Shown piece after piece: positions 2,690-33,589 of a DNA stretch of 37,770 bases (the stretch's first letter is position 1; every line of letters begins with the position of its first letter). This DNA comes from a virus, in the UHGV virus genome UHGV-1359486. One strand, given 5' to 3'. Position numbers and translations under genes: made by a program. The notes beneath the pieces are model-generated. The model made no database searches. It had not been told where the DNA came from and saw only the letters and a list, made by a program, of their open reading frames with translations.

Positions 2690-4621
2690 TTAGATGCATA
2701 TAATTTCAATAAAAAACATCATTCCTGATGTTAATTCATTTGGTTTTACTTTATTACCACTTGTATCAATTAAGTTAAAGTAAACCTCTCCTGACCCAGC
2801 TGATGAGTTGTTGTAAAATGGAGCCAGTGAAATTCCGTTTGCGTTGTTGCAACTGGTACACATCACATATGGGCGTTGATACTTAGTGTATCCAGGCATA
2901 AATTTGACCTTAAAGGCGTATGGATCGCCAGGAACGCTTTCTGCAGAATAAACTCCTGACGCAATATAGAATGAATTATCTACAACGATACCTGACCCGC
3001 CCTGACTAACAAGGCACCCAATTCTCCTGTTTAGTGAGGCGACACTTCCCTCTGACTTGCGCCACTGGTATGAGTTATTTCTTGAAATGACTGGTGTCGC
3101 CATATTTACATATTTAAGTGGTATGTTTCCGCTAATATCATTATCGCCAGCATCAACCCCTTTTATTGTTATTATATTATCTTGCTTCTCAGGATATCCG
3201 GCATAGTCCCAACAGAAAAAATCAATTCTATTTTGCCCTGCACCATCAATAAATAGAGAGCTAACGGCATCACCTCCCCACTGCTGTACATAGTCACATT
3301 GAATTTCAGCTATTTGTGTGTTGTATGGATATGCATCCGTAGTTATAGGGACGCACTTGATGGTTATGCCATGCAAAGCCCCCTCAACCCTTATGTTTCT
3401 AAAAATACATGACGTTATCCATGATCCACCATCTGAACCCGCTGTGCCTTCCGCTGCAACATCCTCCTTTTTAGGCTGCACGGCGAGTACCTGTAATGCA
3501 TACTCACCAAACCCTAAAGTCAGGTCAGTGAACTTCCCCCAACAAATGCTATTCCATCTGCGGCGGTCGTCAACATACTGGCCTCCGTCCTTGCTTAAAT
3601 CAGCACGAAGCATGAGTGAAGTACCGGTCTTGTCTTTCGAGCAACCAACCAGGTTAAGGTTACTGATCGTTATGTTGCGGAGGTTATTTTTACCGATAAC
3701 CAATGCAACAGAATGATTCCATTCTGTTAGGTCACTATCGACGGCTATTCTCGCCTTATTACCATGCCCTTCTGTGCTGAATTCAATATTGTCATTTTCA
3801 AACACAAACCAATCGTTACGTAGTGAGCGGTTAATTAACTGAGCTCCGCCAGAAAAACGGAAGTTTTTCTTAACCTTGACCTGGCTGTTGCAATCAAATG
3901 ACATTTTAGGGATCAGGATGGTGTTTACTGCTGCAATTTCCTGAAGGCCACCCAGAATACTTCCGATATCAGTATTCTCCTGAGCGCCAACAGAAAGGAT
4001 ATCAGCGCCGTTTGTAACATCCAATGTTGCAGTCAGTCCGTTATCCAGGATGACGTTTACCAGCGTGTCTGGCTGATTATTTGTGATTGCATAAATGCCC
4101 TCACCACCATCACCAGGAGAGTAATATCCGCGAGTTTTGACCGTAGCCCCAAGTGGAAGTGATGTATCCGCTACCATTGCAGCGACATTATCGAAGACGC
4201 GGAGATAGTTTTCAGTCAGGCCACCTATCATTTTATATCCATCGTCCCCGCCTAACTCCCCCCTTATCCTTACATCAAATTGATCAGGGTCATACTTCAA
4301 AACATTAGGATAATAGAACTGCTGAGCTCCGTATGAATCATACACCGCCATAGAATGGCCTTGTATGGTAACGAACTTCGCAATCTGCCCGTTATATACC
4401 GGATAGCCAGCTTGGTTAATAATCAGAGGCTGAGTTGCGGGAATGTGCGTTCCATCTTCGTTTTCAAGATACACCTGAATTTGGTTTTCCGGTATGGTGG
4501 GATCGGTGTCAATTTTCCCGATGAAGATTTTCCCGTTACTCGCCGCCTGGAATTTGCGTGCAAGCGTGAACAACTGCGAAGGCATGCTCACTACAACATT
4601 AGGAATAATTTGTTCTGACAT
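2690..4621 (-). CDS. Tailspike protein (P22 gp9-type N-terminal head-binding domain + divergent beta-helix receptor-binding domain)
   Basis: N-terminus [13 protein letters not shown]...[12 protein letters not shown]...[10 protein letters not shown] matches P22-family tailspike head-binding domain; ATG at 4619-4621 with GGAG 6 nt upstream (track ORF starts at TTG 4633). Confidence 0.85.
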
Positions 4622-28752: not shown

Positions 28753-29385
28753 ATGAGTCTTGCCAGCAGAGTAAAAAGTCGTCGCCTTGCGCTCGAAATG
28801 ACACAAACAGAGGCAGCAGAAAAAGCAGGAATTAAACAGCAGTCGTGGGCGTCTATTGAAGATGGTAAGACTGTTAAACCTCGTAATATAATTGCGATTG
28901 GCGCTGCATTGCAGTGCGACCCAGGGTGGCTGATGACGGGAGATAATATTCAGCCAATCAGCGAGGTAAATACACGGAAGATACCTCTAATTAGTTACGT
29001 ACAGGCGGGAAACTTGGCTGAAAGCATACCGATCAGTGATTGTGACGGGTCTTTTGAGTACGTTCTTACCGATCAGGACTTATCTCATAATGCGTTCGCC
29101 CTTCGTATTGAAGGTGATTCAATGGAGCCTGATTTTAAAACCGGCGATGTAGTGATTATCGATCCTGAGATAGAGCCGCATCCAGGTGAGTTTGTTGTCG
29201 CGTCTAATGGCGAGCAAGAGGCAACATTCAAGAAATACAGGCCTACCCATGTCATGATTAATGGTGACCAGCACTACGAGTTAGTCCCACTCAATGACGA
29301 CTATCCAGTGCTCGATAGCGAGAAAATCAATCTCCGGATAATCGGTACAATGGTAGAGCACCGAATTTACCGAAGAAAAAGGTAA
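28753..29385 (+). CDS. cI: CI-type repressor (HTH + S24 LexA-like autopeptidase domain)
   Basis: 210 aa; N-terminal HTH; GDSMEP (Ser) and FKKY (Lys) catalytic dyad context. Confidence 0.9.
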   Translation: MSLASRVKSRRLALEMTQTEAAEKAGIKQQSWASIEDGKTVKPRNIIAIGAALQCDPGWLMTGDNIQPISEVNTRKIPLISYVQAGNLAESIPISDCDGSFEYVLTDQDLSHNAFALRIEGDSMEPDFKTGDVVIIDPEIEPHPGEFVVASNGEQEATFKKYRPTHVMINGDQHYELVPLNDDYPVLDSEKINLRIIGTMVEHRIYRRKR

Positions 29386-29398
29386 CACGCATTTAAAC

Positions 29399-29422
29399 CA
29401 ACCCGCTTCGGCGGGTTTTTTT
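29399..29422 (+). terminator. Rho-independent terminator after cI
   Basis: CCCGC-TTCG-GCGGG followed by TTTTTTT. Confidence 0.65.
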
Positions 29423-29471: not shown

Positions 29472-29515
29472 ATACAGTTTTACCTGTTGACCAAATACAG
29501 TTTTACCTGTATCTT
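29472..29515 (+). promoter_or_regulatory. OL/PL: two operator sites (29472-29489, 29495-29512) overlapping -35 TTGACC and -10 TATCTT
   Basis: Same 18-bp operator family as OR (ATACAGTTTTACCTGT). Confidence 0.65.
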
Positions 29516-29555: not shown

Positions 29556-29600
29556 AGCTCTTTTACAATCGGGAACCTGATCTGAATAAGAGTCAGATCA
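29556..29600 (+). promoter_or_regulatory. nutL-like site: boxA-like AGCTCTTTTACAA + 8-bp stem hairpin with loop AUAAGAG
   Basis: Read directly downstream of PL; loop resembles nutR hairpin loop. Confidence 0.45.
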
Positions 29601-29842
29601 CCACTGAGTGGTTTTTGGGATTGGTGAATGCCGGGTGCTGACCGGCAAGTGTAAGACCTAATGGGTGGTAGATATCGCTGGCTGTAGTCGGTTGAGTAAG
29701 CGCGTTGCAAGCCAGCACCGACCCAATAAACGACATGCGAAACCTTCGCCCCGGTGAAACTCCGGTGTCAACTAGCATGGCGCATAGACAAGCAGGAAAT
29801 CAGCACCTGCCACCAATCACCAAAAATTACTCAGGAGGCAAT

Positions 29843-30142
29843 ATGGCAACAATTACTGTTATTCCAAAGAAAGACAACGCGAAGAGCCGCCGGCTAGCAA
29901 AGCAAATGGCGTTCTGGGACAGAAAGCGTGAGGAGTATGCAGCGATGCCTAAAAGCCGCTCAGTGGAGGAGATTTTTGATTCAGTATTTGCGCCAGCGAA
30001 AGAAGAACGTCCGGCGCTGACACTGAAACCAACACAGTATTACCCGTCCGGTGATAACTGCTGCCTGCCTAAAGTGGCAATTTTCAGCGGGGTTAAGGTC
30101 AAGCAGCCGAAAGGTGATTTCGGGATTACAGTGCGAGCATAA
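29843..30142 (+). CDS. N-like antiterminator (99 aa)
   Basis: AGGAGG RBS; N-terminal Arg-rich motif KSRRLAKQMAFWDRKRE resembling lambda N ARM; first gene after PL/nutL. Confidence 0.6.
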   Translation: MATITVIPKKDNAKSRRLAKQMAFWDRKREEYAAMPKSRSVEEIFDSVFAPAKEERPALTLKPTQYYPSGDNCCLPKVAIFSGVKVKQPKGDFGITVRA

Positions 30143-30536
30143 CCTGATGGGCTGTGTGAGCGCAGATATTTTTATGTACCAACACCAGAACAGGCGCTAA
30201 ATCGGTCGCGTCAGGAATTAATAAAGTACCGTCAGCACCGGAGGATTTATGTAGAAGAAAAAGCGGGCAGACCGCAGCTGCATAGCGACAATGGTTAGGT
30301 AGTGACTACCCCCTGAGTAGCCTGATGGCTAGCCTGTGTAGCGACGGGTCAAGGTTTTTTATATCAAAAATAGCTCTGGTAAAGCAGCGGGAGCGCCAAG
30401 CCCGCACCAGTCATTAGCTGCCGATGGGCATGCAACCTCAAGGGCATGAGCGAGGCCACTGCGAGAGTGTGGCAACTAATCACAGCCCATTCGGTGAGTG
30501 GGCTATGGTGAGTTGATTAATAGATAGGAGATAGAG

Positions 30537-30725
30537 ATGGATATTACGATTTTGTGCTCATCTGCTGATTGCAGTTCAGGGGTTGGAATAATGGAGGTAA
30601 AGGTCATCGATGTGGCTGATATTTCAATTCCAGAAGAATACCAAAATGAAGTGCTCAGAACCGCTATTAGTGAAGAAAATATAATTAAATACCTTAAAAG
30701 TCAGGGTTATTTAGTTACTTGTTAA
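30537..30725 (+). CDS. Hypothetical protein (62 aa)
   Basis: AGGAG RBS. Confidence 0.5.
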   Translation: MDITILCSSADCSSGVGIMEVKVIDVADISIPEEYQNEVLRTAISEENIIKYLKSQGYLVTC

Positions 30726-31991: not shown

Positions 31992-32787
31992 CATCAGCAA
32001 TGATGACTATCACAACGGCCCCGGGATAAGTAAATCGCAGCTGGACCTTATCGAACAATCACCGGCTGACTTTATCTGGCAACGGAATGCCCCGGTGGAT
32101 GAGGAAAAAATAAAGGCTCTGGATTTCGGGACCGCTGTTCACTGCCTTTTGCTTGAGCCTGATGAGTTCAATAACCGGTACAGGATAGGGCCGGAAGTAA
32201 ACAGACGCACATCCGCAGGGAAGCAGGAAGAAAAGGAATTCTTCGAAATGTGCGAAAAAGAAGGAATCACGCCAATCACCCATGACGACAACAGGAAGTT
32301 GATGATCATGCGGGATAGTGCCATGGCCCACCCTATCGCCAAATGGTGCCTTGAAGCTGAAGGAAAAGCCGAGAGCAGCATTTACTGGAATGACAAGGAA
32401 ACGGACATTCTTTGCCGGTGCAGGCCGGACAAACTGATAGGACAACACGGATGGATTGTCGATGTGAAAAGCACCGCGGACATGTCCCGCTTCGAACGCG
32501 CTTTTTACGATATGCGCTATCACGTTCAGGACGCGTTTTACTCAGACGGATATAAGGACCTGTCCGGAGAGTTACCGGTGTTCGTATTTCTCGCGGTCAG
32601 CACAACAATCGACTGCGGAAGATATCCGGTCCGTGTATTCATTATGGATGATGTGGCAAAGGATGCCGGACGGTCCGCATACAAACAAAATCTCAGAACA
32701 TACACCGAGTGCATTAAAACGGATGAATGGCCCGGTCTGAGAACACTATCACTGCCACGCTACGCAAAGGAACTGAGAAATGAGTAA
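31969..32787 (+). CDS. RecE-type exonuclease (nuclease domain only; PD-(D/E)XK)
   Basis: GIYDDISNDDYHNGPGISKSQL, SSIYWND, CRCRPDKL, GWIVDVKSTAD, YHVQDAFYSDGY match the C-terminal nuclease domain of E. coli RecE as recalled. Confidence 0.8.
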   Translation: MQPGIYDDISNDDYHNGPGISKSQLDLIEQSPADFIWQRNAPVDEEKIKALDFGTAVHCLLLEPDEFNNRYRIGPEVNRRTSAGKQEEKEFFEMCEKEGITPITHDDNRKLMIMRDSAMAHPIAKWCLEAEGKAESSIYWNDKETDILCRCRPDKLIGQHGWIVDVKSTADMSRFERAFYDMRYHVQDAFYSDGYKDLSGELPVFVFLAVSTTIDCGRYPVRVFIMDDVAKDAGRSAYKQNLRTYTECIKTDEWPGLRTLSLPRYAKELRNE

Positions 32788-33589
32788 CCCACCAATCGCA
32801 CAGGCGGACCTGCAAAAAGCACAAGGGACCGCGGTTAAAGAAAAAACAAAAGACCAGCAGCTAATCCAGTTCATAAACCAGCCAGGCATGAAAGCTCAAC
32901 TAGCAGCCGCCCTGCCGAGGCATATAACACCGGACCGCATGATCAGGATTGTCACCACCGAGATACGGAAAACTCCATCACTGGCAACCTGTGACATGCA
33001 AAGCTTTATCGGCGCTGTTGTTCAGTGCTCGCAACTTGGCCTTGAGCCAGGTAACGCATTGGGCCACGCCTACCTCCTTCCGTTCGGCAATGGTAAAGCG
33101 GCATCAGGGCAATCAAATATTCAGTTAATTATCGGATATCGCGGCATGATCGACCTCGCCCGCCGATCCGGTCAAATTATCAGTATATCGGCCCGCACTG
33201 TGCGCGAAGGTGACAGTTTTCATTTTGAATATGGCTTAAACGAGGACCTTACACACGTACCCGGCGAAAATGACTCGGGCCCAATCACCCACGTTTATGC
33301 AGTGGCCCGCCTGAAAGAAGGTGGTGTTCAGTTTGAGGTTATGTCTTTCTCTCAGATTGAGAAGGTCCGCGATTCAAGCAAGGCCGGTAAAAATGGTCCA
33401 TGGGTATCTCACTGGGAAGAAATGGCGAAAAAGACCGTCATCCGCCGCCTGTTCAAATATCTGCCGGTATCTATCGAGATGCAGAGGGCCGTCATTCTGG
33501 ATGAAAAAGCAGAGGCCAACGTGGACCAGGAGCATGCATCTATTTTTGAAGGTGAGTACGAAACTGTATCGCCGGAATCCGCGGGGTAA
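32780..33589 (+). CDS. recT: RecT-family single-strand annealing protein
   Basis: 269 aa; LLPFG, IGYRGMIDLARRSG motifs; coupled downstream of the nuclease. Confidence 0.85.
   Translation: MSNPPIAQADLQKAQGTAVKEKTKDQQLIQFINQPGMKAQLAAALPRHITPDRMIRIVTTEIRKTPSLATCDMQSFIGAVVQCSQLGLEPGNALGHAYLLPFGNGKAASGQSNIQLIIGYRGMIDLARRSGQIISISARTVREGDSFHFEYGLNEDLTHVPGENDSGPITHVYAVARLKEGGVQFEVMSFSQIEKVRDSSKAGKNGPWVSHWEEMAKKTVIRRLFKYLPVSIEMQRAVILDEKAEANVDQEHASIFEGEYETVSPESAG

Follow-up and report, generated by a model that had tools for sequence, protein, structure and literature searches.

The gap behind the N-like gene of UHGV virus genome UHGV-1359486 (positions 30143–30536 of the 37,770-nucleotide (nt) stretch that was analysed whole and is called the window here) carries a conserved structured RNA with a Shine–Dalgarno (SD) sequence and a start–stop minigene placed directly 5′ of its fold. 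Covariation among relatives leaves very little doubt that the element represents a genuine structured RNA family, previously uncatalogued. Its composite architecture is unusual, and it is apparently a new class of RNA. Structured RNAs of such size and conservation are rare, and most of the known ones are ribozymes, riboswitches, or the cores of ribonucleoproteins. In the reading favoured here, with a probability of roughly 35–40%, the element is an accessory phage noncoding RNA (ncRNA) that is made by lytic transcription and acts in trans, its 5′ end being guarded by a ribosome on the minigene. The original prediction, made from the letters of the window alone, had described the gap as dense in hairpins and free of open reading frames (ORFs), and had offered a structured RNA, a processed small RNA (sRNA) such as DicF, terminators, or decayed gene remnants as explanations. 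The structured RNA has stood and the other options have fallen, while the SD and start–stop minigene, the long-range helix, and the mobile-module nature of the element had gone unnoticed.

The conserved feature of the gap spans from the SD at 30240 to about 30504, starting 5′ of the first hairpin originally predicted, and consists of the following parts.

30240–30244, + strand: Shine–Dalgarno sequence GGAGG, read from the sequence
30249–30254, + strand: start–stop minigene ATG-TAG, the A of ATG lying 14 nt before the first nucleotide of helix a
30259–30476, + strand: structured RNA core (covariance model R1, with 215 positions, 50 base pairs, and 12 helices)
30263–30275, + strand: helix a, GCGG/CCGC with loop GCAGA; 92% paired, compensatory change in 3 pairs
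30277–30286, + strand: helix b, GCU-GCAU-AGC; compensatory change in 3/3 pairs
30293–30311, + strand: helix c, a stem of 6 base pairs (bp) with conserved loop G-U-N-R-U-G-A; compensatory change in 6/6 pairs, 96% paired
30312–30354, + strand: long-range helix CCU (30312–30314)/AGG (30352–30354), found by mutual information
30318–30331, + strand: helix d, UAGC/GCUA; compensatory change in 3 pairs, 97% paired
30332–30349, + strand: helix e, GCCUGU/ACGGGU, rich in G-U; model pair 94–132 is U:G in 41, A:U in 38, and G:C in 7 sequences
30355–30372, + strand: A/U-rich linker including the U6 run (30355–30360); GGUUAAU or GGUUCAU, then an A-rich stretch, in relatives
30373–30418, + strand: helix f in three tiers, outer GCU/AGC, middle CUGGU/ACCAG, inner GCGGG/CCCGC; inner tier with 5/5 compensatory pairs, 98% paired
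30420–30429, + strand: helix g, short; a variable domain with three alternative modules among relatives
30437–30450, + strand: helix h, CUCA/UGAG with near-invariant loop A-N-G-G-C-A; compensatory variants in independently anchored copies
30455–30473, + strand: helix i, GCCAC/GUGGC with loop UGCGAGAGU; compensatory change in 3 pairs, 97% paired
30484–30504, + strand: 3′ hairpin j, a 9-bp stem AGCCCAUUC/GAGUGGGCU lacking a U tract; covarying stems, conserved AUUC...GAGU top

When the window was searched with R1 (cmsearch), a single match was returned, 30259–30476, at 193.7 bits (E 2.7e-62). In the core, many unpaired nucleotides are invariant, including those of a three-way junction that encloses helices d and e and is closed by the long-range CCY/RGG helix, with invariant unpaired GAGU at 30315–30318. 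The Y:R pair of this helix is C:G in 64 and U:A in 24 sequences of one alignment (92 sequences), and C:G in 47 and U:A in 29 of another (82 sequences). Helix b is GCC-GAAA-GGC, with a GNRA tetraloop, in most relatives, an extra hairpin is inserted in the helix e region of some, and in helix f both an internal loop, (U)AAAGCA, and the GCCA of the terminal loop are conserved. A kissing contact is proposed between GGC of the h loop and GCC of the f loop. The 3′ side of helix i is occupied by a j-type hairpin in most copies, and by an intrinsic terminator (12–16%) or a nut-like leader hairpin in others.

The 12-helix model was built from alignments, RNAalifold, and mutual information. In a plain MAFFT alignment of 57 sequences, 89% of cells are paired, 21 of the 50 pairs have compensatory changes, and double-change cells number 167, compared with 38 in shuffled alignments and at most 27 in slid controls. 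The corresponding values are 95.1%, 34/50, and 381 (shuffled, 92; slid controls, ≤69) in a model-fitted alignment of 92 distinct sequences, and 95.2%, 33/50, and 230 (shuffled, 48; slid controls, ≤37) in one of 82 distinct sequences. In none of the three did any of 500 shuffles match these values. Model-fitted alignments are biased towards the model, yet the covariation signal is real because the MAFFT-only result and the slid controls agree with it. Compensatory changes are seen in 11 of the 12 helices in the two model-fitted alignments. Helix h could not be assessed in the first sequence set because the search pattern fixed its sequence; in the independently anchored set, it occurs as CUCG/CGAG, CCCA/UGGG, and UCCA/UGGG. 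A long-range pairing proposed by RNAalifold, GAG (30315–17) with CUC (30437–39), was rejected, as GAG is invariant while CUC changes to CCC or UCC with stem h compensating locally; the CCY:RGG helix is supported in its place. G-U pairs are frequent, for example U:G in 41/92 for the helix e pair listed above and G:U in 88/92 for another, and since these would be A-C mismatches on the opposite strand, the fold is specific to the operon-sense strand. A correlation between model positions 210, a base 5′ of helix i, and 224, in its loop, is probably lineage linkage.

This strong structural covariation across homologous regions (0/500 shuffles) is one of the checks on a structured RNA that the original prediction had named. 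Its five stem-loops are all present, and each is a conserved covarying helix or part of one: 30298–30310 lies within c, 30318–30331 is d, 30387–30405 is inner f, 30455–30473 is i, and 30484–30504 is j. Neither strand of the gap has an ORF of 60 amino acids (aa) or more, as had been stated, the longest being 30–39 aa. A gene or its decayed remnant was rejected as an explanation: conservation follows base pairs, no ORF is kept across copies, and the variable domains differ between copies by whole-hairpin insertions and by indels of 1 nt or other lengths that are not multiples of three. The frames of the two 30-aa ORFs at 30325–30417 and 30424–30516 are broken by such indels in relatives. The U6 run is indeed at 30355–30360, and together with helix e (30332–30349) it matches a simple pattern for an intrinsic terminator; the U tract is replaced in relatives and is therefore a linker rather than a terminator. 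The only other terminator-like structure of the gap is a weak hairpin further upstream (30152–30165).

Ribosome loading is probably part of the function of the element. An SD and ATG followed, after zero to two sense codons, by a stop codon are found in 81 of 88 distinct copies (77/84 and 48/51 in independent sets), and five of the seven copies that lack this minigene are among the lowest-scoring and apparently decaying. Among the 81 minigenes, a GGAG, GAGG, or AGGA core is present in 77 and ATG in 79, the spacing between SD and ATG peaks at the optimal 7–8 nt, and in 76 the A of ATG lies 12 or 13 nt 5′ of the first nucleotide of helix a. The stop codon always comes before or at the foot of helix a. 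Under strict criteria, the minigene is detected in 159 of 205 copies, compared with 0.04% of control positions in the same loci. The encoded peptides are not conserved (M, MKQ, MVH, MKH, MHQ, ML, and others), nor are the codons either conserved or rare (AAG, CAA, GUG, CAC, and others), and approximately 15% of copies are pure start–stops. It follows from these statistics and from the unconserved peptides that what is conserved is not a peptide but the loading of a ribosome at a set distance from the fold. For the bar minigenes of phage lambda, long a puzzle, the element could offer a possible biological rationale, though no homology to bar was found. In the minimum free energy fold of the window, the SD is sequestered by an ACCUC-like stretch before helix h; this pairing is not systematic among copies (mean −4.6 vs −3.9 kcal/mol, median rank 0.35).

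The element is common. Temperate phages and prophages that carry it number in the hundreds and span Enterobacterales, among them those of E. coli pathotypes, Klebsiella, Enterobacter, Morganella, and Xenorhabdus. Low-stringency blastn revealed that the core of the gap is 70–77% identical to unannotated stretches of very different phages, namely Escherichia vB_EcoS-733R5, Klebsiella RothC and RothD, Stx2c-converting phages, Hafnia yong1, mEp213, Providencia PSTCR7lys, Edwardsiella EPP-1, and the linear-plasmid prophage phiKO2. Altogether, homologues are present in more than 200 viral contigs and 58 prophage loci. A 24-nt pattern taken from the most conserved stretch has at least 120 matches in viral contigs, and a second pattern, anchored on another helix, also has at least 120, with at least 85 new loci among the matches listed. 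When one genome per bacterial or archaeal species was searched with the first pattern, 59 stretches were found, 58 of which were confirmed by the covariance model, all in Enterobacterales; the single match in Rhizobium was not confirmed. The confirmed genera include Citrobacter, Klebsiella, Enterobacter, Kluyvera, Escherichia, Pectobacterium, Hafnia, Edwardsiella, Morganella, Providencia, Proteus, Xenorhabdus, Buttiauxella, Ewingella, and Chimaeribacter. Each searched locus has exactly one copy, as does the window. One subtype alone is found in 54 of 5,426 complete E. coli genomes, where, as generally in GenBank and RefSeq, it is unannotated or mis-annotated as a hypothetical protein. In RothC (2384–2720), such coding sequences lie over the RNA element on the antisense strand, and several RefSeq E. 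coli genomes have them as well, judged by feature name only; they are probably annotation artefacts. As the element resides in the culturable phages mEp213, RothC, Hafnia yong1, and phiKO2, it is directly testable.

No catalogued RNA accounts for the element. An Rfam scan, another check named by the original prediction, found no matching family: with Rfam 15, nothing in the whole window reaches gathering thresholds, nothing overlaps the core (30259–30476) at E ≤ 10, DicF included, and in five other members nothing overlaps the element at E ≤ 1. The sole match touching the gap, snoZ278 at 30501–30558, is at chance level (15.8 bits vs a gathering score of 36). No tRNA or tmRNA was detected in the gap by ARAGORN or Rfam, and 21.5 kb of lambda plus the put region of HK022 yielded nothing above 4.3 bits with filters off. 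In open-access papers, no description of the RNA was found, and a precisely spaced start–stop minigene could not be found described there for any phage or bacterial ncRNA. The DicF sRNA of the Qin prophage is likewise an ncRNA within the PL-equivalent operon of a lambdoid prophage, presumably released by processing, but it is a base-pairing sRNA of ~50 nt that is unrelated to the present element in size and architecture. GOLLD and ROOL, both in Rfam, resemble the element in having complex conserved folds in phages and prophages, often near tRNA genes, as has the RothC copy, which adjoins two tRNA genes; in contrast to them, the element is much smaller, confined to Enterobacterales, and furnished with an upstream minigene in ~92% of copies.

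All copies are sense to their operon, either the early-left (PL) or the late one, and their position varies between phages. Copies in PL leaders follow a cI-type repressor gene and directly precede a nut-like motif and an N-like gene; in 11 loci, the ORF that comes next is N-like, and in 25 a nut-like motif is within ~15 nt. In the window and its close relatives, the element is 3′ of the N-like gene. Other copies are ~140 nt downstream of Q, immediately 3′ of a strong tR′-like terminator and ahead of holin genes, and often have a second terminator after them; holins are downstream in ~18 loci. In 733R5 and phiKO2, the element is between spanin/lysis genes and terminase genes. Upstream neighbours include cI-type repressors, Q proteins, spanin-like proteins, and methylases, and downstream neighbours N-like proteins and holins. 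A strong intrinsic terminator is found just 5′ of the SD in ~20–25% of copies and a terminator downstream in 12–16%. The element is a portable module that moves between accessory-gene slots of lytic operons. Such slots for accessory genes (‘morons’) are known in lambdoid genomes, with stx and tRNAs after Q, bor after Rz, and sieB and ral near N.

In the late leaders, a 12-bp tR′-like stem lies ~10 nt 5′ of the SD, and helix i is directly followed by a second terminator. Locus L081 (− strand) is an example, its element being bracketed by intrinsic terminators at 4438–4467 and ~4155–4185, and the arrangement is similar in L017, L018, L022, L027, L057, and L062. Even in the absence of Q, a discrete terminated RNA could arise by leaky read-through of the first bracketing terminator. 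In Providencia PSTCR7lys (L004), a perfect 17-nt direct repeat, GGTGAGTTGATTAATAG, flanks the element at 2420–2436 and 2677–2693 (spacing 257 nt); a j-like hairpin lies upstream, and GGTGAGTTGATTAATAG is also found 3′ of the element in the window (30507–30523). This repeat looks like a scar of module insertion or recombination. Flanking direct repeats as a sign of transposition were rejected, with none in seven other loci including the window.

The element is a three-part unit: a ribosome-loading start–stop, a folded core, and a stable 3′ hairpin or terminator. In the favoured reading, the RNA would be produced whenever antiterminated lytic transcription passes through the element. A ribosome would then initiate on the minigene and, because the ORF has only one to three codons, probably cycle on the spot, up against helix a. 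When a minigene is cut from 8 codons to 2, ribosomes are reported to recycle more on the same mRNA without dissociating from it (PMC2490762). Parked there, the ribosome may serve as a 5′ guard that blocks RNase E or Rho arriving from upstream and excludes upstream translation from the fold, with the 3′ hairpin or terminator protecting the other end. A stable, discrete, folded RNA would thereby accumulate from a polycistronic transcript, and its invariant core would bind a specific host or phage partner and thus play an accessory role in host takeover or counter-defence.

Several points weigh against this reading. Both the discrete, stable RNA and the guarding role at its 5′ end are things that we infer; helix a, with only 4–5 bp, is a weak barrier; and a simple guard does not by itself explain why the distance between ATG and the helix is held within 1 nt. 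The 64 upstream and 68 downstream protein clusters include no constant neighbour gene that might be a candidate partner. A pattern scan of the window and of late-leader loci revealed no evident promoter of the element's own upstream of it, and expression in lysogens is therefore doubtful, unlike that of classical morons. The folding energy of 30236–30510 alone is not significant against dinucleotide shuffles (z = −1.29 on the + strand and −1.48 on the − strand), the hairpin density of the gap being significant through comparative evidence only.

A less likely but still sizeable possibility is that the ribosome–RNA complex itself is the functional unit. The minigene would dock a 70S ribosome at a constant spacing that places helix a at the mRNA entry channel, and the fold would act or report on it. 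With ATG in the P site, a structure that begins at +13/+14 stands at the entry channel, the same geometry as in frameshift-stimulating structures. Were this reading true, the fold might reprogram or monitor host translation, shield the ribosome from ribosome-dependent defence toxins, or pass it over the inserted RNA as a bacterial ‘shunt’, and the element would found a new class of phage-encoded, ribosome-tethered regulatory RNA.

It is unlikely that the element is a cis-acting transcription element resembling the put sites, with the nascent folded RNA binding its own polymerase and rendering it resistant to pausing or termination, or else assisting N or Q complexes across downstream terminators. 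The placement fits in part: sense copies are found towards the 5′ ends of long operons rich in terminators (in the PL leader before a nut-like site in 25 loci, after tR′, and in the window after N and a weak terminator), and a further terminator follows some of them. Like the element, putL and putR of HK022 are folded phage RNAs, in sense orientation, early in PL/PR-type operons of lambdoid phages, with hairpins that have conserved unpaired bases, and put RNAs are also placed just downstream of PL and PR (PMC9378689). However, early promoter-proximal placement ahead of terminators is true of the PL-leader and post-tR′ copies and untrue of the window copy, which is after N, and of those deep in the late operon between lysis and terminase genes. 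The element also has 215 nt and 12 helices, compared with the ~70 nt and two stem-loops of put (PMC9378689), and it has no homology to the put region, since R1 scores ≤3 bits on HK022 24–34 kb with filters off and blastn gives no match to HK022. Furthermore, the phages that carry it already encode N-like or Q proteins, and a ribosome-loading minigene, which put lacks, would have no role in put-type action.

Less likely still is that the minigene is the effector and the fold only stabilises or tunes it, in which case abundant translation of an ORF of one to three codons would tie up ribosomes, peptidyl-tRNA, or the factors for release and recycling and so damp host translation. In favour, the SD, ATG, zero to two codons, and stop are nearly universal and precisely placed, and peptidyl-tRNA drop-off and in-place recycling are maximal for very short minigenes (PMC2490762). 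An SD, a start codon, a very short ORF, and a stop codon, the features of minigenes of the lambda bar type, are found in the window and in most copies of the family. The bar minigenes, which belong to lambda PL transcripts, likewise have a strong SD, ATG, one to three codons, and a stop within lambdoid early operons. To our knowledge, however, bar minigenes stand alone, with no conserved structured RNA attached, and their effect depends on a particular last codon. In the element, the codons are not rare and vary freely, the latter arguing against tRNA-specific action, and the ~15% of copies that are pure start–stops involve no elongator tRNA at all. In addition, stabilisation would not call for 215 nt and dozens of invariant unpaired bases, translation late in infection is needed by the phage itself, and lambda has no homologue. 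A toxin of the CreT kind was rejected. CreT, of the type VIII toxin–antitoxin system CreTA, is similar as a small ncRNA with an SD–ATG minigene followed by a stem-loop, but it relies on tandem rare arginine codons and has a CRISPR-repeat-like antitoxin RNA and neighbouring cas genes. The minigene here has common codons, no repeat-like partner was noted in the flanks, and cas neighbours are absent.

As improbable as a minigene effector is a sensor, either riboswitch-like or a ribosome-sensing leader, in which the fold binds a ligand or reports translational capacity and thereby controls downstream expression. The complex conserved core with invariant junction nucleotides is typical of ligand-binding RNAs, sense-oriented copies lie 5′ of N (11 loci) or of holins (~18 loci), and a terminator sometimes follows. 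Against a riboswitch, however, the downstream genes are heterogeneous, with the next start codon ~20 to >270 nt away, and most copies have neither a downstream terminator nor a platform for sequestering an SD. The SD and ATG of the element are 5′ of the fold rather than 3′, and systematic pairing between the SD and the 3′ part is not seen.

A translational bridge analogous to the ribosome shunt of caulimoviruses, in which ribosomes would be passed from the mini-ORF to the next cistron across the inserted RNA gene, thereby keeping translation continuous, is very improbable. A short ORF just before a stable structure is the geometry required for shunting in cauliflower mosaic virus, and here the ORF ends 0–8 nt before such a structure in a module that is always inserted between translated cistrons. 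Yet the downstream genes have SDs of their own at widely varying distances, no helix closing the 5′ and 3′ sides was found, and any hairpin would serve, which leaves the conserved core unexplained. Finally, the notion that there is no RNA function, and that the gap is a decayed gene, a DNA-level site (e.g., a single-stranded DNA structure), or a cluster of terminators, is scarcely credible and already contradicted by covariation: unexceptional single-sequence folding, hypothetical proteins annotated over some homologues, and one terminator-pattern match inside the element would favour it, but compensatory changes in 11/12 helices, G-U pairs specific to one strand, reading frames that are all broken by indels, an unconserved U run, and a tightly placed SD–ATG–stop, which is indicative of RNA and ribosomes, all oppose it.

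The phage of the window is lambdoid and temperate, its + strand being the PL direction, and the gap is set among the following features.

28753–29385: cI-type repressor (Peptidase_S24 and HTH_3)
29400–29417, with T run to 29421: strong intrinsic terminator (AACCCGCTTCGGCGGGTT plus T run), directly 3′ of the cI-type repressor gene
29487–29515: PL-like sigma-70 promoter match (TTGACC, 17 nt, TATCTT) from a pattern scan, at the expected PL position
29843–30142, + strand: N-like ORF, 99 aa, arginine-rich; weak N_peptide match (E 3.9e-4), below the Pfam cut-off
30152–30175, + strand: weak terminator-like hairpin (30152–30165) CUGUG-UGAG-CGCAG with U-rich tail, from a pattern scan, just 3′ of the N-like ORF
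30537–30725, + strand: next protein-coding ORF, 62 aa, with its own SD AGGAG and no Pfam match, the 3′ limit of the gap

The hairpin at 30152–30175 represents a tL1-like context outside the conserved family and is not kept in relatives. The terminator at 29400–29421 is the source of weak, spurious Rfam matches (rsmX, Trp_leader, isrB, and isrK). Downstream of the gap come small ORFs, then an exonuclease, and then a RecT-type recombinase (32780–33589), within which ARAGORN called a 97-nt tRNA-Gly(tcc) in antisense (32908–33004, − strand), probably a false positive in view of its unusual length and position.

Between the PL-like promoter and the N-like gene, a boxA-like sequence, GCTCTTTTACAA (29557–29568), precedes an 8-bp hairpin, TGATCTGA-ATAAGAG-TCAGATCA (29578–29600); the two form a candidate nutL, with a hairpin that exceeds the canonical boxB in size. 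A second, conserved leader motif consists of (G)CUUUGGGAUUGGUGAAUG and a short hairpin 3′ of it, with covarying stems and GGCUGA or GUGCUGA as the loop; it is found in the window (29612–29645), in L002, L005, L032, and L047, and in ~20 other loci. In 25 loci, it comes right after the RNA element and 5′ of an N-like gene, and the window has it in the leader of N, with helix h 823 nt further downstream. The motif probably serves this N family as its nut/boxB-type site. In mEp213, the PL operon has two different N-type antiterminator genes (1224–1556 and 2709–2981), with the RNA element and the nut-like motif located between them.

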